NCBI GenBank assembly: GCA_963665235.2
Contig: CAXXLX010000001.1
Span: 480,001 to 544,000 of the forward strand
DNA: 64,000 bases
DNA from: Candidatus Poribacteria bacterium
GTDB lineage: Bacteria > Poribacteria > WGA-4E > WGA-3G
Direction of reading: 5' to 3'
Shown: piece by piece, positions 8,693 through 19,994 of the stretch
Position numbering within the stretch: the stretch's first letter is position 1
Layout of the letters: the number at the start of each line of letters is the position of its first letter
Position numbers and translations under genes: made by a program
The notes under the pieces: model-generated
What the model was told of the DNA's origin: nothing
The model's input: the letters and a program-made list of their open reading frames with translations, nothing else
Databases searched by the model: none

Positions 8693-9890
8693 ACTTACAA
8701 ACATAGACGGGGCGGGCGTTCACGCACATTCAATACCGAGAACCAAATGTTACACTTTGTGTCAAAAGTGTAACATTTACACACAAATAGAACAAAAAAA
8801 TAGGAGACAGAACGATAAGAATTGTAGCACATACTTCCAGTTTGTGCCTCTATAAAGTAGGCAGGACAGATGTTACACTTTGTGTCAAAAGTGTAACATT
8901 TACACACAAATAGAACAAAAAAATAGGAGACAGAACGATAAGAATTGTAGCACATACTTCCAGTTTGTGCCTCTATAAAGTAGGCAGGACAGATACTCGA
9001 AAACCGGCCTCCGATATGTCCCACTTCGTTTTTTATGTGTTGTGAAAAAGATAGGGGTAAATCGCTTGAAAAGCTATACGTAGCGTGCGTTTGTGCGAAT
9101 GCAGCACCGAGAACCAAATGTTACACTTTGTGTCAAAAGTGTAACATTTACACACAAATAGAACAAAAAAATAGGAGACAGAACGATAAGAATTGTAGCA
9201 CATACTTCCAGTTTGTGCCTCTATAAAGTAGGCAGGACAGATACCCGAAATCGGCAGTCGAAATGACACAACGCGTTTTTTTCTGTTGCGAAAAAGAGAG
9301 GGAAAAACCACTTACAAACATAGATAGGGCGGGCGTTTGTGCACATGCAACACCGAAAACCAAATGTTACACTTTGTGTCAAAAGTGTAACATTTACACA
9401 CAAACCGCACAAAAAAGTAGGAGACAGAACGATAAGAATTGTAGCACATACTTCCAGTTTGTGCCTCTATAAAGTAGGCAGGACAGATACCCGAAATCGA
9501 CAGTCGAAATGACACAACGCGTTTTTTTCTGTTGCGAAAAAGAGAGGGAAAAACCACTTACAAACATAGATAGGGCGGGCGTTTGTGCACATGCAACACC
9601 GAAAACCAAATGTTACACTTTGTGTCAAAAGTGTAACATTTACACACAAACCGCACAAAAAAGTAGGAGACAGAACGATAAGAATTGTAGCACATACTTC
9701 CAGTTTGTGCCTCTATAAAGTAGGCAGGACAGATACCCGAAATCGACGGTTAAAATGACACAACGCGTTTTTTTCTGTTGCGAAAAAGAGAGGGAAAAAC
9801 CGCTTATAAACATAGACGGGGCGGGCGTTCACACACATGCAATACACAAAACCATAAGTTACACTTTGTGTCAAAAGTGTAACATTTACA
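8693..9890. repeat. Tandem array with about 246-bp period, each unit with a 34-bp palindrome and a REP
   Basis: TGTTACACTTT-GTGTCA-AAAGTGTAACA six times; GTAGCACATACTTCCAGTTTGTGC five times. Confidence 0.9.
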
Positions 9891-9921
9891 CCGGTTTTGT
9901 ACAAAAACTTTACACACCCAC

Positions 9922-9977: not shown

Positions 9978-10610
9978 ATGGGATTTCCTGTTTACGATTA
10001 CCGCACAGATGTCCGGAACGTTTTGGTAACACCCCAGATCCGCTCACGTTTCCTGAGAATGGAACCCGGACAGAGTGCACAACTACATAGTCATGACCTC
10101 GGTCACGAGATTTTCCTGATTCTGGAAGGGCGCGTTGAATTTGAAATCGATGGTGAAACGGAAGAGTTAGGCCCAGGACAGATGTGTGTCGCGCTAGCCG
10201 AGCAGCCGCACAAGGTACGTGTGCTCGGAGACGAACCGATGACGATGTATCTATCTGTCACACCCCATATCCATCCGACACACACACCGCGAACAGAAGA
10301 TGGCCAAAGACTTCCACCCAATTTCGCACCAGCGAGTGCTTACGATGTGGAACCGGATATGCAGATATCCGTGTCGGAGCTCGTTAAGCAGCAGATACAT
10401 GCCTCACAACAGCTTGCAGAACTCACCCGAAGGTGTACGGCGGTCCAGGAAGAAATGGGCAGCCAACTCAAAGCCGCAATTGCCGAAGGCGATGAACAGG
10501 CTGCCGCCGCAGCCCGAAAAGCCATGTGGGAAGCAATGTACCCTGTTTACAGAGCAGCCGCTGAACTAGCCGATATTTGGAATGAACTCGCACCACGCGC
10601 GACCTTGTAG
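9978..10610 (+). CDS. Cupin domain protein
   Basis: HSHD..HEIFLILEG and PHKV cupin motifs; helical C-terminus; GGAGG RBS. Confidence 0.85.
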   Translation: MGFPVYDYRTDVRNVLVTPQIRSRFLRMEPGQSAQLHSHDLGHEIFLILEGRVEFEIDGETEELGPGQMCVALAEQPHKVRVLGDEPMTMYLSVTPHIHPTHTPRTEDGQRLPPNFAPASAYDVEPDMQISVSELVKQQIHASQQLAELTRRCTAVQEEMGSQLKAAIAEGDEQAAAAARKAMWEAMYPVYRAAAELADIWNELAPRATL

Positions 10611-10756
10611 GATACTTTTTTAATTTGATTTACCGCTCTGATTTATGGTAGAATTACAAAAAACGGTCCTATGTGTAAAACGTCCATGCTCTAGGCGAGC
10701 GATGTGGTACCTACTCTCTAAAAAAAGATTTGACATTCACAAAGCGAATGTGTTAT

Positions 10757-11347
10757 CAAGTCCCAGCTACAAAACCCCTGTGCTTTAGCTGGGGGATGTA
10801 GTAGCGGCGCATGAGCTAAAATTTAACTTGACTTTTGCCTTAAAATGTTGTATAATATTAGCAGCTGCTGGTAAAGAAATACGACCCCGTGTTTACGCGT
10901 GTTCTCTACCAATCCCTTGTATTGGGTAGAGCAGTTGCAGCGAACCACAGACACTGCAAGCGGTATAAACTCTAAATATAGACCGGAATTCCCTGTAATA
11001 GGACGGTCTCACTACTACATATAGGTCTAGCTGGCCTGCTGTTGCCAAGTGCCCAAATACGTGAGCGGACTCTCTACTTAGCTGCCTGATAGTCCCCTGG
11101 AGGATACAAGCTATCTCCAGAGTGCGATGCACTAAAAAACTTGTCCTGATTTTTCCGCTAAACGGGAATTTCATGTATTGTAGGGCAGGGCATTGTCCTA
11201 CTTGGAGTAGAACGTGTTAGACTTGTTTTGTGAAGTCCTTCGGGACAGCAAACTGCAAGCGACGTTTGTTGATACCACAATCTACCCAGAGAGGCATTGG
11301 GCTCTTTACTAAGAATCCCCCATGCTTTAGCTGGGGGAGTATGTCAA
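10757..11347 (+). mobile_element. Non-autonomous IS200/IS605 (TnpB-type) element with no credible protein gene
   Basis: TTAT|CAAG left end, GCTTTAGC subterminal hairpins at both ends, right end GAATCCCC...GGGGAGTATGTCAA; internal TTGACT-17-TATAAT. Confidence 0.8.
11180..11347 (+). ncRNA. TnpB omega-RNA (reRNA)-like scaffold
   Basis: Structured right-end region ending in hairpin plus GTCAA; guide would be the downstream flank ACTACATGTATAAAATCGTA. Confidence 0.6.
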
Positions 11348-11747
11348 ACTACATGTATAAAATCGTATAGAAAAGCGTGGAAAATACCTTATTGCGGATT
11401 TTGCTTAACTTAAAATGAACTTTATGTCCCTAAGGTCCTTCGGTAAATGAACTTTATGTCCCTAAGGTCCTTCGGTGCACAAGCGGAGGTATCGTCTGTC
11501 GTTCTCAGCATTTGTAAGCCGGGCCATTCCGCAAGATGTGCTAACCGAGAACCCGAGCCGGTGGGAAAGCACATGAATCCGACAAAATAATCCCCTTTGA
11601 GCTGTCGAAGGAAAGTATATCAGATTGAAATGCCGATTTGCTTCGGTTTCACTTCGTTCAATTATTATAAATTTTTAAGGCATGCGGTTTTTCTTCCGTA
11701 GGTTTCCAAACCGCAAATTACAATAAATTAGCTAAGGAGTATTTTTT

Positions 11748-14609
11748 ATGAAAAACCAATTTTTCAATAGGAGAACCCTGTTTTTCCTATTGGCGATTGT
11801 AACATGTTTGGGATTTACAGCCATGAGTTACGGTGCAGCCACTGTCTCGGTTGATCCCGCTACACTTGAATCCCCAGCGGCCGGGGAACAATTCACAGTA
11901 GATATTACCATAGCAGGCGGCGCAGGCATCGCTGGTTACCAGGTAACCGTAAACTTCGATTCGACTGCGCTCAGTTATGTCTCTATTGCATATCAAGAAG
12001 ATTATCTTGAGAAACCCGCGGACCTATTAAGCCCCGTTACCGTATCTGATAATAGCGTAGTTTTTTGGGCAATAGGTGGTGCGCCGGATGGGGATCACAC
12101 CCTTGCTACGATAACATTTGAGGTTGTGGAAGCGAAAGAATCCGCCATTACCCTATCAGATATTGTTCTTTCTGATGCTGCTTCAGATGCATTAGAAGTC
12201 ACAACAGTAGATGGGGCGATTACTGTTCCCGCGACAGAAGAGCCAACAGACCCAACGGATGAACCAACAGACCCAACGGATGAACCAACAGATCCGACTG
12301 ATGAGCCAACAGACCCAACGGATGAACCAACAGATCCGACTGACGAGCCAACAGACCCAACGGATGAACCAACAGATCCGACTGACGAGCCAACAGACCC
12401 AACGGATGAACCAACAGATCCGACTGATGAGCCAACAGACCCAACGGATGAACCAACAGATCCGACTGACGAGCCAACAGACCCAACGGATGAACCAACA
12501 GATCCGACTGACGAGCCAACAGACCCAACGGATGAACCAACAGACCCAACGGATGAACCAACAGACCCAACGGATGAACCAACAGATCCGACTGAACCAA
12601 CGGAACCGACCGTAGCTACCGTTTCTGTCACTCCCGATACATTTGAATCTCCAGCGGTTGGGGACCAATTCTCTATAGATATTACCATAGCAGGTAGTGC
12701 AGGGGTTGCCGGTTACCAGGCGACTGTAAACTTTGATTCGACTGCACTCAGCTATGTCTCTATTGCATATCGAGAAGACTATCTTGAGAAACCCGCGGAC
12801 CTCTTAAACCCCGTTAATGTATCCGAAAATAGCGTACATTTCTGGGCGTTGGGTAGTGCACCGGATGGTGACCACACGCTTGCTACGATAACATTTGAAG
12901 TGATTGAGGCGAAAGAATCCGCTATTACCTTGTCAAACGTTCTACTTTCTGATGCTGCTTCAGGTGCATTGACAGTCACAACTACAGATGGAATGATCAT
13001 TGCTCCCTCGACAGAGCCACCAGAGCCGCCAGTGGAACCAAAAGAGCAACTCTTTGAAATTACCCTCACCAGCCTCACCGTGGGACCACCGGGAGGACAA
13101 ATCTTTTCGCCACCCATCTTTGCTACACACACATCAGCGGCAAATCTCGGCATGGTTGGGGAACCCGCCAATCCGGCACTCGTCACCCTTGCTGAAACTG
13201 GAGCTGTCTCAGGGTTACTTGCACTTGCTGGAGCCGTAGGCGCGAATACTGCTGTCGCAGATGGGCTAGTTCTTCCGGGCCAGTCCGTTACCGTTCGGTT
13301 AACTGGCAACGCAATGAACAATTCACTTACCGCCGCGGCAATGTTAGTTTCAACAAATGATGGGTTCATCCTTGGCAGTATACCGCTCTACGATGAGGAC
13401 GGTATGCCTGTGTCCACAACGTTGGATTTAATAGCTTTCGATGCAGGTAGCGAAGAAAACACAGAGCTTGCATCCGATATTCCGGGGCCGACCGCTGCCC
13501 TTGAGGAAAACCCAGGCGCAACCAATGCGCGTGTACCAACAGAAGATGGCGTAATCATGCCACACCCTGGCGTTCAAGGCATTGGCGATTTGCCCCCAAC
13601 ACTTTTAGGTTGGACAGAACCGGTGGCGACCCTAACAATCACCCCGGTATCCGATGAAGAGCCACCGGTAGACCCGGAGCCACCGGAACCTACCGAACCT
13701 AGCTATGACATCGTGCTTGAACGCGGATTAAACATGATCGCTGTTCCGCTGATGCCCGAAGAGCCCTACACAGCGGCATCGCTTGCCGAAAAGTTAGGCG
13801 CAACAATTGTCATCAAATTAGAGGCTGACACACAGCGACTCCTCGGCTATTCCGCAGCTGAAGAAGGAGATGGCTTCGCTATCGAAGGTGGAAAAGGGTA
13901 CATCGTCAATACACCCACAGGTGGAACCGTAACATTTACAGGCACTGCATGGAACAACCAAACTGTTGATGCACCCGCTGCACCGAGTACCACCACCGCT
14001 AAGAACGCCTGGGCATTCGTTATCACAAGTCAATTGCATGATAAAGAACCCGGGGCATCTTACACCCTAGTGTCCAAAAACCTTCGCACGGGAGTTGTCG
14101 CAACCAAGAATGTTACCAGCGACGATGCAAGCAGCTCAACTGCCTGGGCAAATCTCGACCTCCAGAGCGTCGTTGAAGCCGGTGATCGGGTTGAAATTAC
14201 ACTCCTCGACGAACGCGGCACCGTTGTCTCCGGACCGTTTGAACGCACAATTCAAACCTCCGATATTCACAACGCATATCTGAGCGTGCAGCTGCGAGTT
14301 GGCGATGTCCGTCCGAACGAAACACTCCTCGGACAGAACTTCCCGAACCCGTTCAACCCCGAAACATGGATACCTTATCAACTGAATCGCGACACCCTCG
14401 TGACCATTGAAATCTTTGATGTTTCCGGGCATTTGGTTCGTACGCTAGACCTAGGACATAAGTCAACAGGCACATACATGACGACTTCAACAGCAGCTTA
14501 TTGGGATGGGAAAAATGACGCAGGCGAAGCTGTCTCCAGCGGGATATATTTCTATGTCCTCAAAACAGAGAACTTCTCTGCAACGCGCAGAATGGTCATC
14601 CTCAAGTAG
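11748..14609 (+). CDS. Secreted protein: two cohesin-like domains, PTD(E/P) linker, Spondin_N-like domain, C-terminal FlgD-Ig/sorting domain
   Basis: Signal peptide; VNFDSTALSY..LATITFEV twice; QIFSPPIFATH..LAETG..TNDGF..FDAGSEEN; NFPNPFNPETWIPYQL..YWDGKN..GIYFY. Confidence 0.85.
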   Translation: MKNQFFNRRTLFFLLAIVTCLGFTAMSYGAATVSVDPATLESPAAGEQFTVDITIAGGAGIAGYQVTVNFDSTALSYVSIAYQEDYLEKPADLLSPVTVSDNSVVFWAIGGAPDGDHTLATITFEVVEAKESAITLSDIVLSDAASDALEVTTVDGAITVPATEEPTDPTDEPTDPTDEPTDPTDEPTDPTDEPTDPTDEPTDPTDEPTDPTDEPTDPTDEPTDPTDEPTDPTDEPTDPTDEPTDPTDEPTDPTDEPTDPTDEPTDPTDEPTDPTDEPTDPTEPTEPTVATVSVTPDTFESPAVGDQFSIDITIAGSAGVAGYQATVNFDSTALSYVSIAYREDYLEKPADLLNPVNVSENSVHFWALGSAPDGDHTLATITFEVIEAKESAITLSNVLLSDAASGALTVTTTDGMIIAPSTEPPEPPVEPKEQLFEITLTSLTVGPPGGQIFSPPIFATHTSAANLGMVGEPANPALVTLAETGAVSGLLALAGAVGANTAVADGLVLPGQSVTVRLTGNAMNNSLTAAAMLVSTNDGFILGSIPLYDEDGMPVSTTLDLIAFDAGSEENTELASDIPGPTAALEENPGATNARVPTEDGVIMPHPGVQGIGDLPPTLLGWTEPVATLTITPVSDEEPPVDPEPPEPTEPSYDIVLERGLNMIAVPLMPEEPYTAASLAEKLGATIVIKLEADTQRLLGYSAAEEGDGFAIEGGKGYIVNTPTGGTVTFTGTAWNNQTVDAPAAPSTTTAKNAWAFVITSQLHDKEPGASYTLVSKNLRTGVVATKNVTSDDASSSTAWANLDLQSVVEAGDRVEITLLDERGTVVSGPFERTIQTSDIHNAYLSVQLRVGDVRPNETLLGQNFPNPFNPETWIPYQLNRDTLVTIEIFDVSGHLVRTLDLGHKSTGTYMTTSTAAYWDGKNDAGEAVSSGIYFYVLKTENFSATRRMVILK
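12238..12610 (+). repeat. Coding 21-bp tandem repeat (EPTDPTD, about 18 copies)
   Basis: Visible in DNA and translation. Confidence 0.95.
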
Positions 14610-14615
14610 GCTTAA

Positions 14616-15010
14616 CACGCCTCCGTCAAATCCCCATGCTTTAGCTTGTGGGATGTAGACGGCTCAGGGCGTTGTTGAAAAATTTAATTTGACTTTTACC
14701 GAAAAATGTGGTATAATTATATCAGCATCGTGGACAGCATTCTCAGACTACACTCTCATGTAGTTGCTGTCCCTCAACCCTGAGAAGTTGCGTGATGCTG
14801 GTGCGAAATCACTGAAAACATTTCGGGATACACCGACGCTACATGTGGAGTAGAATCCCAGTCAACAGTGTGTATCCCCTCAATTCTATTCTAAAACGGG
14901 CAGGCTTAGCTGCCCTAAGTGGAGACGATGTCCGACGAGTTATCCCTCAGGGGTAACCGCTGTTGTCGAGGAAGCACAAGCCCCCACCTTTAGGTGGTGG
15001 GTACTATGAC
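14616..15010 (+). mobile_element. Second non-autonomous IS200/IS605 (TnpB-type) element, no ORF
   Basis: GCTTTAGC left hairpin, TTGACT-17-TATAAT, right end GAAGCACAAGCCCCCACCTTTAGGTGGTGGGTACTATGAC; ends approximate. Confidence 0.75.
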
Positions 15011-15028
15011 CAACTAACACGTAACAAT

Positions 15029-15100
15029 AAAAACGCCCCGACTGCCGGTTTTCCGAGCGTGAATCAATTCCGATTAACGTCGGCGGTGGGGCGTTTTTTC
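15029..15100 (+). terminator. Intrinsic terminator-like hairpin
   Basis: AAAAACGCCCC...GGGGCGTTTTTT. Confidence 0.6.
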
Positions 15101-15110
15101 AATTAATTAT

Positions 15111-15425
15111 ACCTAAGTTGCCACCTAGTAGCACAAACTTCCTAGTTTGGGTCTTCCATAAGGGCGCGAACTAGGAAGTTCACGCTACAATTAACAGCAG
15201 TTTTTGACTAATTAACGCAAGTTGCCACCTAGTAGCACAAACTTCCTAGTTTGGGTCTTCCATAAGGGCGCGAACTAGGAAGTTCACGCTACAATTAACA
15301 GCAGTTTTTGACTAATTAACGCAAGTTGCCACCTAGTAGCACAAACTTCCTAGTTTGGGTCTTCCATAAGGGCGCGAACTAGGAAGTTCACGCTACAATT
15401 AACAGCAGTTTTTGACTAATTAGAT
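15111..15425. mobile_element. ACCTAAGTTGC-type MITE with three tandem ~101-bp units, each an inverted REP pair (REPIN-like)
   Basis: TAATTAT at 15104-15110 and 15426-15432; GTAGCACAAACTTCCTAGTTTG...GAACTAGGAAGTTCACGCTAC three times. Confidence 0.75.
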
Positions 15426-15453
15426 TAATTATACGGTAGAGGTGTCGGTTTTG

Positions 15454-18400
15454 ATGTATCTAAAAAATATCCTATCTATCTCACTCGGACTTATACTCTT
15501 TCTCGCAGCAAGCAACGGAAATGTACTTGGCTACTCCTTTAATCCCCCTGATGGACTAACAGGAGCACCCAATGAAGGCAACTGTACACAGTGCCACGCA
15601 GGCAATGCCCTGAACGACTCAGATGGCTCCCTGATTTTGACTATACCTGAAAACTATTCACCAGGTGAAACCTACGATATTGTTGTCAAATTATCACACC
15701 CAGGACAAAAAAGATGGGGATTCGAAATGACAGCACTGAATAGTAGCGGGACACGCGCCGGCACCTTTGCTACAGCAGATGGAAATACACAAGTTTCTAC
15801 AGCAGGTGGAAAGCAATACATTAAACAGACTCTCTCCGGCGTAGCCACCGATAAAGCAGACTCCAACAGCTGGACATTTAAATGGACTGCACCCACCACC
15901 GATGTCGGAACTATAACATTTTACGCTGCAGGAAACGCTGCAAATAGTGATTTTACCTTCCGGGAAGATTATATCTATACCCAAAAAGCGACATCGGACG
16001 CTCCCCCTATTTATGGGCTTACGCTAATAGGCGTAGGTGCCTTGACAAAACAAACCGCAGATCCAAGTTCAGGTGTTAGTTATACGCTCCAGCTCACGAA
16101 CACCGGCAACACAACCGATACGTTTAAACTATCAACGTCAGGAGCTGTGGCTGCTACCCTCAGTCGCACCACTGTCTCCCTCACACCTAATGCTTCCACC
16201 CAAGTAACAGCCAAAATCGCTGGGACCGCGCTATCGGCTGCGGGAACTTATGATGTCAAGGTTACAGCAACTTCACAAGGGGATAGCGCGCAAACTGCTG
16301 ATATTACAACGACAACAACGGTCCTGCCTATTTACGATGTTACGTTAGCCGGCGTAGGCGCGGTGGCAAAACAGACCACAGACGCAAGCGCGGGGGTTAG
16401 TTATACGCTTCGGATTACAAACACGGGAAATACAACCGATACGTTTAGACTATCAACATCAGGCGATGCGAATGCTACCGTCAATCGAACCTCTGTATCG
16501 CTTGGGCGTGGCGCATCTACCCAGGTAACGGTAACAGTGTCTGACCCTGTGCTATCAACCGCGGGAACTTATGATGTCAAGGTTACAGCAACTTCACAAA
16601 GCGATACAACACAAACCGATGATATTACAACAAAAACCACTGTCCCACCTGTTTACGGGGTCACGCTAACCGGTGTAGGTGCGCTGGCAAAACAGACCAC
16701 AGACGCAAGCACAGGCATCAGCTATACACTCAAAATCACAAACACGGGAAACACAAACGATACGGTTAAACTATCAACATCAGGCGATGCAAATGCTACC
16801 CTTAGCCGGTATGCTATCTCACTTGCGCGCGGGGCTTCCACACAAGTGACAGTGAGGGTTTCTGGTGCTGCACTCGCCGCCGCGGGGAGTTATACTGTCA
16901 AGGTTACAGCAGCATCACAAAACGATACTACAAAAACCGATGACATTACAACAAAAACCACGATCCTCCCGGTTTACGGGGTTGCGTTAGCAGGGGTAGG
17001 CGCACTAGAAAAAGAGACCTCAGATATGAGTTCGGGTGTCAGTTATAGTTATACGCTTCAGGTCAAAAACACAGGAAACACAGATGACACCATACTGCTT
17101 AGCTCCTCAGCAGAAGTCGGCATTGAGGGAAGTGTGCTCGGAACATTCACTCAAACAGGCACACAAGCACAGCAGGTCAGCCAGTTAGAGGTTACACTAG
17201 CCGCCGGAAAATCTGCCGAAGTTATCTTTACAGCAGCAGGGGATGTCTTTACAAAACCGGGCGAATACACAATCGAAGTTACAGCAACTTCGCAAAACGA
17301 TACTACAAAAACCGCCCAAGCAACAACCACTACAACCGTTTTACCTGTTTACGGGGTTGCGTTAGCAGGTGTAGGTGCACTGGCAAAACAGACCACAGAC
17401 GCACGCGCAGGCAGCAGCTATACACTTCGCATTACAAACACGGGAAACACAGACGACACGATACTGCTTAGCTCCTCAGCAGAGGTCGGCATTGGCGGAA
17501 GCGTGCTCGGAACATTCACTCAAACAGTGCGCAAGCACAGCAGACCAGCCAGTTAGAGGTTACCCTTTCCACCGGAACATCTACAGAGGTTATCTTCACA
17601 GCAGCAGGAGACCTTCTTACAAAACCGGGCGAATACACAATCGAAGTTACAGCAACTTCGCAAAACGATACTACAAAAACTGCCCAATCAACAACCACTA
17701 CAACGGTTTTACCTGTTTACGGGGTTGCGTTAGCAGGTGTAGGTGCACTGGCAAAACAGACCGCAGACGCACGCGCAGGCAGCAGCTATACGCTTCGCAT
17801 TACAAACACGGGAAACACAGACGACACGATACTGCTCAGCTCCTCAGCAGAGGTCGGCATTGGCGGAAGCGTGCTCGGAACATTCACCCAAACAGGTGCG
17901 CAAGCACAGCAGACCAGCCAGTTAGAGGTTACCCTTTCCACCGGAACATCTACAGAGGTTATCTTCACAGCAGCAGGAGACCTCCTTACAAAACCGGGCG
18001 AATACACAATCGAAGTTACAGCAACTTCGCAAAACGATACTACAAAAACTGCCCAAGCAACAACCACTACAACGGTTTTACCTGTTTACGGGGTTGCGTT
18101 AGCAGGTGTAGGTGCACTGGCAAAACAGACCGCAGACGCACGCGCGGGCAGCAGCTATACGCTTCGCATTACAAACACGGGAAACACAGACGACACGATA
18201 CTGCTCAGCTCCTCAGCAGAGGTCGGCATTGGCGGAAGCGTGCTCGGAACATTCACCCAAACAGGTTCACAAGCACAGCAGGGCAGCCAGTTAGAGGTTA
18301 CCCTTTCCACCGGAACATCTGCCGAGGTTATCTTCACAGCAGCAGGAGACCTCCTTACAAAACCGGGCGAATACACAATCGAAGTTACGGCAACATCGCA

Positions 18401-19352
18401 AAACGATACTACAAAAACTGCTGAAGCAACAACCACTACAACCGTTTTACCTGTTTACGGGGTTGCATTAGCAGGTGTAGACGAGCTGACAAAAGAGATA
18501 GCGACAGCAGGCGAACCGGTCAGCTATACGTTCAAAATCACAAATACAGGCAACACAGCCGATGTCATAGATATAGCAACGACAGGCGATGCGGCCGCCA
18601 CATTAAGTCAGACCACTATCTCACTATCCGCCGGGGCTTCAGCAGAAGTGACGATGACAGTCCCTACGACCGCACTAGCAACTGCCGGCGATTACGTTGT
18701 CACGTTTACAGTCACTTCCCAGGGGGATAGCACACAAACCGCTAAAACGACAACCACAACCACTCTTCTGCCAGTTACACCGGTTTATAGTGTCACGTTT
18801 GAAGGGGATAGTGAACATACTGGCTCAACCGTGGATGTGCTGTCGGGTGTGAGTTATACACTCACGGTCACAAACACCGGGAATATGGATGACACGATAC
18901 TGCTTGGCTCTTCAGCAGAGGCTGGCATTGAAGGGAGTATGCTCGGGGCATTCGCTGCTATAGATTCACCAGAACAGCGGAGTGGTCAGTTAGAAGTTGT
19001 ACTAGCCGCCGGAACATCTGCCGAGGTTATCTTCACAGCGGCAGGAGATTTCTTTACAAAACCGGGCGACTATGCAATTGAAGTTACGGCAACATCGCAA
19101 GCGGATACCACAAAAACCGCCGTGCTTACCATAACAACAACGATAACCCCTGTACCCTCAGACGTGAATGCTGATGGGGTGGTAAATATTTTGGATTTAG
19201 TGAAAGTTGCCAATCAATTCGGTGAAGTTGGCGATGGTCTCGTTGGGGATGTGAACATAGATGGGCGCGTAAATATCCTTGATTTAGTAAAGGTCTCCTC
19301 CCGTTTCGGTAAGACCCAAGTGGAGATTGTCGAAATCTTGCCGCCCCTTTAA
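15454..19352 (+). CDS. Large secreted protein: Reeler/choice-of-anchor-V-like domain with CxxCH, about nine Ig-like repeats, C-terminal dockerin; one frameshift near 17527
   Basis: TGAPNEGNCTQCH..WTFKWTAP..FYAAGNAAN; TNTGNTxD repeats; DVNADGVVNILDL and DVNIDGRVNILDL; ACAGTGCG vs ACAGGTGCG in the sister repeat. Confidence 0.8.
17335..18480 (+). repeat. Three near-identical 369-bp coding repeats
   Basis: Shadow ORFs at 17743 and 18112 repeat with a 369-bp period. Confidence 0.9.
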
Positions 19353-19380
19353 AAAGCAGCTTAGGAGAATACGTGTGTTT

Positions 19381-19914
19381 ATTGTAGCATAAACTTCCAG
19401 TTTGTGTCCTTTATTGTAGCATAAACTTCCAGTTTGTGTCCTTTATCGTAGCATAAACTTCCAGTTTGTGTCCTTTATCGTAGCATAAACTTCCAGTTTG
19501 TGTCCTTTATCGTAGCATAAACTTCCAGTTTGTGTCCTTTATCGTAGCATAAACTTCCAGTTTGTGTCCTTTATCGTAGCATAAACTTCCAGTTTGTGTC
19601 CTTTATCGTAGCATAAACTTCCAGTTTGTGTCCTTTATCGTAGCATAAACTTCCAGTTTGTGTCCTTTATCCGTATAAACTTCCAGTTTGTGTCCTTTAT
19701 CGTAGCATAAACTTCCAGTTTGTGTCCTTTATCGTAGCATAAACTTCCAGTTTGTGTCCTTTATCGTAGCATAAACTTCCAGTTTGTGTCCTTTATCGTA
19801 GCATAAACTTCCAGTTTGTGTCCTTTATCGTAGCATAAACTTTTAGTTTGGGTCTTCCGTTCTCCGTTTCATTTCTAACAACCGGTAATGATAGAATAAT
19901 TAATAAAAATGGTA
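19381..19914. mobile_element. TACC MITE lacking a clear left end, about 15 tandem 32-bp REP units
   Basis: ATCGTAGCATAAACTTCCAGTTTGTGTCCTTT repeats; same right arm ending AAATGGTA. Confidence 0.85.
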
Positions 19915-19994
19915 TTAGAACGAAGACTACCGAAACAGAAGAACTGTGACACCTGCTCTGACGATTAGGATGTCACTCGATATGGAGAAGAAAA

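Follow-up and report, generated by a model that had tools for sequence, protein, structure and literature searches.

Positions 14721-14895 of the stretch of DNA analysed here (the window, 64,000 nucleotides from Candidatus Poribacteria) read as a pseudoknotted RNA with a second structured domain, ahead of an omegaRNA-like end, which raises the question of what kind of genetic unit such an RNA belongs to and what it does there. An earlier note had regarded it as a cargo RNA, the second of two copies (A and B) bracketing a secreted-protein gene. Cas12 descends from TnpB elements, which are under development as compact genome editors. PATE elements, according to the accessible text of a preprint, often encode omegaRNAs on which TnpB acts in trans (Meers et al. 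2023, PMC10055086).

Boundaries, Promoter and Modules of the Element

The RNA lies within a longer unit, the outer features of which are the following.

11748-14609, + strand: host gene for a cohesin/T9SS-tail protein (Pfam), stop codon at 14607-14609
14612-14615, + strand: TTAA target motif and presumed TAM, in the left flank
14616-15010, + strand: whole ORF-less IS200/IS605-type element of 395 bp, delimited by empty-site contigs, with 14721-14895 inside
14632-14652, + strand: left-end subterminal imperfect hairpin, CCCCATGC TTTA GCTTGTGGG, read from the sequence
14689-14717, + strand: promoter TTGACT-17-TATAAT with TG extension, 11 of 12 consensus positions
14981-15001, + strand: right-end hairpin
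15031-15099 (about), + strand: strong intrinsic terminator of the host gene, displaced by the insertion; the empty-site contig enters it from the 3' end of the gene

The boundaries were given by an empty site in a related population, in which contigs X6 (from a DNA run) and X9 (from an RNA-library run) join 14615 directly to 15011. Exactly 395 nt are skipped, with a 2-nt ambiguity, and the junction is scarless, shows no target duplication, and connects the 3' end of the host gene to its own terminator. Because 14616-15010 alone is missing from the empty site, copy B is an independent 395-bp insertion, placed after the stop codon of the host gene and ahead of its terminator, and no + strand ORF of at least 50 aa was found inside it. 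TTAA precedes the conserved first C in six of the seven subfamily copies of this genome, the seventh having an interrupted left end. The left-end hairpin begins 16 nt within the left boundary and the right-end hairpin stops 9 nt short of the right boundary, a spacing that we take to be typical IS200/IS605 geometry. Both hairpins carry CTTTAG-type loops, and the ends themselves (CACGCC... and ...TACTATGAC) are unrelated, so there are no terminal inverted repeats; the right ends of the subfamily finish at TACTATGAC, beyond which the flanks diverge. The segment 14616-15010 is a discrete, population-polymorphic insertion of the IS200/IS605 type after TTAA, and it would be mobilised by TnpA in trans.

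Between 8000 and 20000, three promoters match the consensus at 11 of 12 positions, including the one at 14689-14717; the third is on the minus strand at 8408-8380. The number of blastn matches in the same genome differs along the locus: 43-52 for the left module of about 90 nt with hairpin and promoter (14628-14720), about 10 for the D1 module (14721-14820), 4 for the D2 module (14821-14895) and 8-13 for the right module (14896-15010), which indicates a modular build. In the sister copy at C1:1263180-1263558, about 18-20 nt of the left flank (GGTATCGATGTCAATTCG...) recur about 22 nt past the right end.

Structure and Conservation of Domain D1

Domain D1 follows the promoter directly and is composed of these parts.

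14722-14801, + strand: D1, a three-way junction (P1, P2 with inner hairpin, P3) with a 7-bp pseudoknot 14740-14746/14780-14786, supported by covariation and by matches of covariance model R1
14722-14729 with 14794-14801, + strand: P1, TCAGCATC with GATGCTGG, one G-U pair
14732-14739 with 14765-14772, + strand: P2, GGACAGCA with TGCTGTCC
14740-14746, + strand: 5' strand of the pseudoknot, TTCTCAG
14747-14752 with 14759-14764, + strand: inner hairpin, ACTACA with TGTAGT (whole hairpin 14747-14764)
14775-14778 with 14787-14790, + strand: P3, CAAC with GTTG
14780-14786, + strand: P3 loop, CTGAGAA, perfect complement to TTCTCAG 14740-14746

All the pairings listed for D1, and those given below for D2, can be read from the letters of the window. 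P1, P2, TTCTCAG, the ACTACA/TGTAGT hairpin and P3 were each located where the earlier note had placed them, and the loop complementarity that it had described as perfect is exact. When D1 was folded by itself, the outcome included P1, P2 and the inner hairpin, together with a small one following P1, with a z-score of only -2.38 and equal folding in 5 of 200 shuffles; the 398-nt stretch up to the terminator gave a clearer z of -5.85. Covariation is stronger evidence than folding energy that D1 exceeds chance.

The covariance model R1 was built on eight D1 copies of this genome (5.3 Mb, 4 contigs), using the nested helices only and leaving the pseudoknot out. It found 12 matches in the same genome, 11 at 87-115 bits and one at 31 bits. 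Of 101 genomes from this family, 64 were positive, a single one accounting for as many as 39 of the matches listed. In a phylum-wide sample, 61 of 99 genomes of family f1 and 1 of 26 of family f3 were positive, and none of 25 in the other seven families sampled. The D1 alignment (44 sequences, 43 distinct) showed pairing in 96.6% of cells against 78.2% in shuffles, statistics that are inflated by the lack of independence among copies of one genome and of related genomes; pairing dropped to 34-46% when the 3' partners were shifted by 1-3 columns, and double-sided changes were present at 31 of 37 pairs. The loop-loop helix, which is absent from R1, was paired in 96.9% of cells, and five of its seven positions show compensatory changes. 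These values refer to the model-based alignment A4, the MAFFT alignments A1 and A2 having two subgroups one column out of register. The variety of the pseudoknot 7-mers makes the D1 pairing hard to doubt, despite the kinship of the copies.

The relatives that carry the D1 motif are assigned to Candidatus Poribacteria. An exact 18-base pattern comprising P4 (described below) and its linker matched 79 stretches, including 13 from other taxa; these 13 were rejected as chance matches, since R1 gives 11 of them no more than 20.6 bits and does not match the other two, whereas seven control loci score 72-100 bits, and about 17 chance matches are estimated for 18 fixed bases in the collection searched. 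Rfam at gathering scores gave no match in the whole window; with E up to 10, the sole matches in 10600-15500 were PinT and Plastid-ycf3, both at the level of chance (E 3.3 and 4.8) and outside D1 and D2. No tRNA or tmRNA was found by ARAGORN.

In 19 of 21 copies, P1 starts 5 nt past the -10 hexamer, so that the D1 fold would take in the extreme 5' end of the transcript. Covariation by itself fits a fold of RNA and one of single-stranded DNA equally, since the sequence of the top DNA strand is that of the RNA.

P4 and Domain D2

D1 is followed by a short hairpin and by a second domain.

14801-14812, + strand: P4 hairpin GTG-CGAAAT-CAC, followed by a conserved AAAACAU linker; helix 98.4% paired, compensatory changes at 2 of 3 pairs
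14825-14893, + strand: D2, a 9-bp stem with 36-nt loop and a second pseudoknot, scored in related sequences
14825-14833 with 14870-14878, + strand: D2 stem, GGGATACAC with GTGTATCCC
14851-14856 with 14883-14888, + strand: D2 pseudoknot, loop TAGAAT with ATTCTA

The D2 stem (6-11 bp) was found in all ten related sequences, in four sequence versions, and the second pseudoknot (5-6 bp) in nine of the ten, in two compensatory versions, TAGAAT:ATTCTA and TAAGAA:TTCTTA. Scoring was done by script, because four sequences are misaligned by two columns in the MAFFT alignment A6. The D2 fold is real, supported by few independent changes. The second stem and the TAGAAT/ATTCTA complementarity of the earlier note are thus present, and its pseudoknotted domains are, by the covariance analysis of D1 and the scoring of D2, both real and conserved.

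The possibility that D1 and D2 are a degraded remnant of tnpB coding sequence is disfavoured by the stop codons in the frame translation and by blastn, in which intact tnpB elements showed no similarity upstream of 14896. A few 6-10-mers common to D1-D2 and tnpB (GTGGACAGCA, GTCAAC) were noted by eye and could be due to chance.

Right End and the TnpB and TnpA Genes of the Genome

The remainder of the element is related to known tnpB elements.

14894-14956, + strand: tnpB remnant, the last 20 codons and stop, KRAGLAALSGDDVRRVIPQG*, by in-frame translation against the C-termini of 383-aa TnpB
14896-15010, + strand: omegaRNA core scaffold and right end, 115 nt, terminal TACTATGAC, by blastn and an alignment of 35 distinct cores
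15011-15026, + strand: right flank, would-be guide of a read-through omegaRNA, from its position 3' of the right end

That 15011-15026 would serve as a TnpB guide is our assumption by analogy with TnpB systems. The segment 14896-15010 shares 91-92% identity with the right ends of two elements of the same genome with intact 383-aa tnpB, and equally with that of one element with a truncated tnpB ORF, so the omegaRNA-like right end that had been described proves to be genuine, consisting of a 3' remnant of tnpB and a right end of this type.

The proteins that such a scaffold would need are encoded in the genome: intact TnpA and TnpB genes are present, the TnpB genes with nearly identical right ends. 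By our own count, 21 of 59 left-module matches have an ORF of 332-432 aa within 600 nt downstream, and those listed of this set resemble TnpB or TnpA; TnpA-sized ORFs of 134-137 aa stand ahead of tnpB at three left-end copies. Pfam searches with three ORFs returned OrfB_IS605 and Cas12f1-like_TNB for two large ORFs and Y1_Tnp for one of 134 aa (E 2.6e-33). One intact 383-aa TnpB aligns over residues 22-372 with the solved ISDra2 TnpB (E 3.4e-40), and it retains GFDYG, FETLN and DRDVNAA (the D, E and D motifs), which we take to be the RuvC catalytic motifs. In one intact-tnpB element, the left-end hairpin is broken by an insertion of about 45 nt (C1:1304840-1304900); this element may supply TnpB and yet be immobile.

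The reading that we favour, with a probability of roughly 0.8, is that the flagged RNA forms the body of a non-autonomous PATE-like IS200/IS605 element, 14616-15010, which has lost tnpB and kept all the parts of the guide RNA.

The right-end core is conserved across the 35 distinct sequences. Copy B has C at 14933, within the conserved GTAAGACG stretch, where at least 90% of the 35 distinct relatives have A, and on this account it may be a weakened guide RNA. The same substitution could be taken to mean that copy B is an inert relic that has gone out of use even though the motifs of its family are conserved, and only four full copies of its subtype are present in the genome; with 98% identity to a second copy, all D1 and D2 pairings intact, and a presence/absence difference between closely related populations that points to recent insertion or loss, we regard a relic as rather unlikely.

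D1 Topology in tnpB Leaders and in ORF-less Elements

The pseudoknot topology of D1 was found directly behind the left-end promoter, in the 5' UTR, in all eight tnpB-bearing relatives examined. This set comprises eight elements from seven genomes (L066, L067, L027, L028, L034, L046, L047 and L050), the leader being taken as the stretch from promoter to AUG in a plain MAFFT alignment. The leaders follow the D1 plan of P1, P2, inner hairpin, P3 and pseudoknot with different sequences; 95.8% of cells are paired, and compensatory changes occur at 17 of 30 pairs and at six of the seven pseudoknot pairs. The leaders carry the P1 3' strand twice in tandem, as two 7-nt repeats (e.g. CGTGATA CGTGATA), each of which pairs with the P1 5' strand at 92.9% and covaries with it. 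The second repeat ends a few bases upstream of the AUG, a stretch in which the eight leaders show no evident Shine-Dalgarno sequence. The arrangement suggests that the tandem P1 partners may form a two-state switch acting on translation.

In the ORF-less elements the P1 3' strand is not duplicated; P1 is followed by the P4 hairpin, the conserved AAAACAU linker, a long variable D2-like stem and the omegaRNA core, and the D1 leader is combined with three different right-end types. Its presence both in tnpB 5' UTRs and in ORF-less elements of three right-end types makes D1 the family's own leader, and the description of the RNA as cargo was accordingly abandoned. In three genomes (L105, L109 and L110 in G012, G078 and G114; location about 330 nt after the start of D1), a D1-P4-D2-omegaRNA-like RNA with no recognisable right-end hairpin occupies the same place immediately upstream of an OmpA-like lipoprotein gene; it may be a domesticated or fixed copy.

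These leaders also bear on whether D1 and D2 work as RNA at all. They might instead function in the top strand as it is transposed, as folds of single-stranded DNA that could, for instance, assist excision or integration. IS200/IS605 elements move as top-strand single-stranded DNA, as the accessible text of the PATE preprint has it (PMC10055086), and the folds are strand-specific in the required sense, many of their G-U/G-T pairs becoming C-A mismatches on the opposite strand and the sense strand being the top strand. However, G-T pairs, which are frequent here, are weak in DNA, P1 keeps its fixed distance of 5 nt from the -10 hexamer, that is, to the predicted 5' end of the transcript, and the alternative P1 partner abuts the AUG in the tnpB copies, pointing to a role at the mRNA level. 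A DNA-level function for D1 and D2 is therefore judged improbable.

A catalytic or ligand-binding function has to be weighed as well, in which D1 would be a self-cleaving ribozyme trimming the transcript or a riboswitch gating the expression of tnpB or of the guide. Ribozymes are known at the 5' ends of mobile-element RNAs, and D1 is a compact three-way junction held by a long-range pseudoknot; its P2 sequence is conserved (GGATAG/CTATCC), and P1 in the tnpB leaders is of a two-state type. In architecture it can be likened to three-way-junction RNAs closed by loop-loop pairing, such as the purine riboswitch aptamer or the tertiary contacts of the hammerhead, with P1 closing two arms whose loops pair. 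It differs from both in that its long-range helix has 7 bp and covaries freely and that the junction strands are very short, 2-4 nt in the alignment, leaving little space for a conserved catalytic or ligand-binding core; nor was any ribozyme or riboswitch of Rfam matched, even with E up to 10. We give this possibility little credence.

Copy A and the Composite-Transposon Hypothesis

The second element that had been paired with the RNA is located upstream of the host gene.

10760-11345 (about), + strand: copy A, a second ORF-less IS200/IS605-type element of about 590 bp, with the left-end/promoter module and another structured interior

Transposases of the IS200/IS605 family act on whichever left-end/right-end pair is compatible, and a composite transposon could be imagined in which the left end of copy A and the right end of copy B mobilise the enclosed secreted-protein gene, with D1 and D2 as cargo. 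Both elements are on the + strand and flank the gene at 11748-14609, in keeping with the bracketing in direct orientation that the earlier note had described. The bracketing goes no further, because the empty site lacks only 14616-15010, with the gene still joined to its terminator, and because copy A owns a right end of a different type (GAGTATGTC, about 11309-11345, hairpin 11315-11338, against TACTATGAC in copy B). Copies A and B have only the left-end/promoter module in common, at 74% identity; copy A folds differently, and R1 gives no match to it, its internal RNA included. With the D1 topology native to the tnpB leader, joint mobilisation of the gene is highly improbable. Copy A is an element distinct from copy B, and nothing points to a composite transposon.

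Repeats were also noted nearby. Between copy A and the cohesin gene, 11413-11476 is a perfect 32-nt direct duplication (AAATGAACTTTATGTCCCTAAGGTCCTTCGGT x2). Further upstream, 8740-9907 holds four tandem repeats of 246 bp that begin at about 9030 and are preceded, starting at about 8740, by related units; each has a palindrome with a 15-bp stem (AAATGTTACACTTTGTGTCAAAAGTGTAACATTT), and they precede a cupin gene at 9978. On the other side, between the displaced terminator and the gene starting at 15442, three tandem 104-bp units (15115-15426; 100%, 100% and 96% identical) each contain the inverted repeat AACTTCCTAGTT...AACTAGGAAGTT. The region 15442-19352 encodes a large protein with Ig-like/FixG_C repeats and a dockerin domain in three overlapping ORFs (15442-17556, 17375-18424 and 17871-19352), a split that may reflect frameshifts or assembly slips in DNA repeats of 321-369 bp, and a 32-nt tandem array follows these ORFs at 19293-19950.

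Expression of the Element

Contigs from RNA libraries that are 100% identical to the locus were found in two cases, X5 to 14766-14923 and X8 to 14768-14911; in X8 the neighbouring gene has no cover. In a third RNA library (X9) there is no cover over 14761-14883, which was not counted as evidence of absence. All three are contigs and thus blind to transcript ends, DNA carry-over in RNA libraries is possible, and the second copy of this genome, C1:1263180-1263558, being 98-100% identical, is an alternative possible source of the RNA contigs. Taken with these limits, the contigs weakly favour expression of 14616-15010.

Proposed Mechanism

For the favoured reading, a guide-RNA-only element, the following course of events is proposed from the arrangement of the parts. 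Transcription would be driven by the left-end promoter, start in the initial bases of P1 and yield a single RNA containing D1, P4, D2, the omegaRNA core and then the flank. TnpB supplied in trans would bind the 115-nt core, with the flank CAACTAACACG... as guide. After excision by TnpA, TnpB would cut the TTAA-flanked empty site (TTAA-CAACTAACACG; TTAA-CAACTAACACGTAACA), and recombination would restore the element. The most likely role of D1, and at the same time the least certain step, would be to stabilise or organise the transcript as a compact fold at its 5' end. We assume, by analogy with the ISDra2 scaffold of about 116 nt, that D1 and D2 are dispensable for TnpB binding; their retention is therefore not predicted by the guide-RNA explanation.

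A wider interpretation can be put forward tentatively, as a possibility that we hold to be less probable than its failure. D1 could represent a new class of transposon leader RNA, acting as a two-state switch on tnpB translation and forming, together with P4 and D2, a required 5' module for making or stabilising stand-alone guide RNAs that parasitise the TnpB of others; the family would then host guide-RNA-only mobile genes with three omegaRNA types and one leader.

Relation to Known Systems

The 115-nt core at 14896-15010 is close in length to the ordered ISDra2 scaffold of about 116 nt. The ISDra2-type TnpB omegaRNA/reRNA (structures 8bf8, 8exa and 8h1j were matched) likewise has a scaffold running from the 3' part of tnpB to the right end and takes its guide from the flank; the scaffold of 14616-15010, in contrast, stands without an ORF and has two extra pseudoknotted domains ahead of it. 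No omegaRNA-type family of Rfam, including the HEARO/IS605-orfB motifs, matches the element in the window.

The closest likeness is to PATE elements, which, in the accessible text of the preprint, also have no protein gene, carry subterminal hairpins at both ends and a TnpB guide scaffold at the right end, and depend on TnpA/TnpB in trans (PMC10055086). What 14616-15010 adds to this plan, between left end and core, is a promoter close to consensus and some 175 nt of pseudoknotted RNA with covariation (D1, P4 and D2). The leader module is common to ORF-less elements of three right-end types; no such leader is mentioned in that text. IStrons, which combine a group I intron with TnpB elements (10.1101/2023.11.20.567912, accessible text), similarly place a structured RNA at the left-end side, upstream of the guide RNA, of an IS605/IS607-type element, whereas D1 has only about 80 nt, no match to a group I intron of Rfam and no splice-site logic. 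A 5' leader pseudoknot in IS200/IS605 elements was not found described in the main texts of the literature searched (including PMC10055086, PMC10691335 and 10.64898/2026.09.24.754181). Guide-RNA-only PATE-like elements are known; the pseudoknotted leader and its two forms were not found described in Rfam or in the literature searched.

Significance

To our knowledge, the natural expression, stabilisation and regulation of TnpB guide RNAs are only partly known. The locus 14616-15010 is a natural, well-delimited case of an omegaRNA gene that stands alone on a mobile element and is driven by a promoter. For the annotation of these genomes, it means that dozens of "structured intergenic RNAs with strong promoters" are transposon derivatives. 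If the leader governs the translation of TnpB or the stability of guide RNAs, it would constitute a new regulatory layer and a possible part for engineering guide expression.
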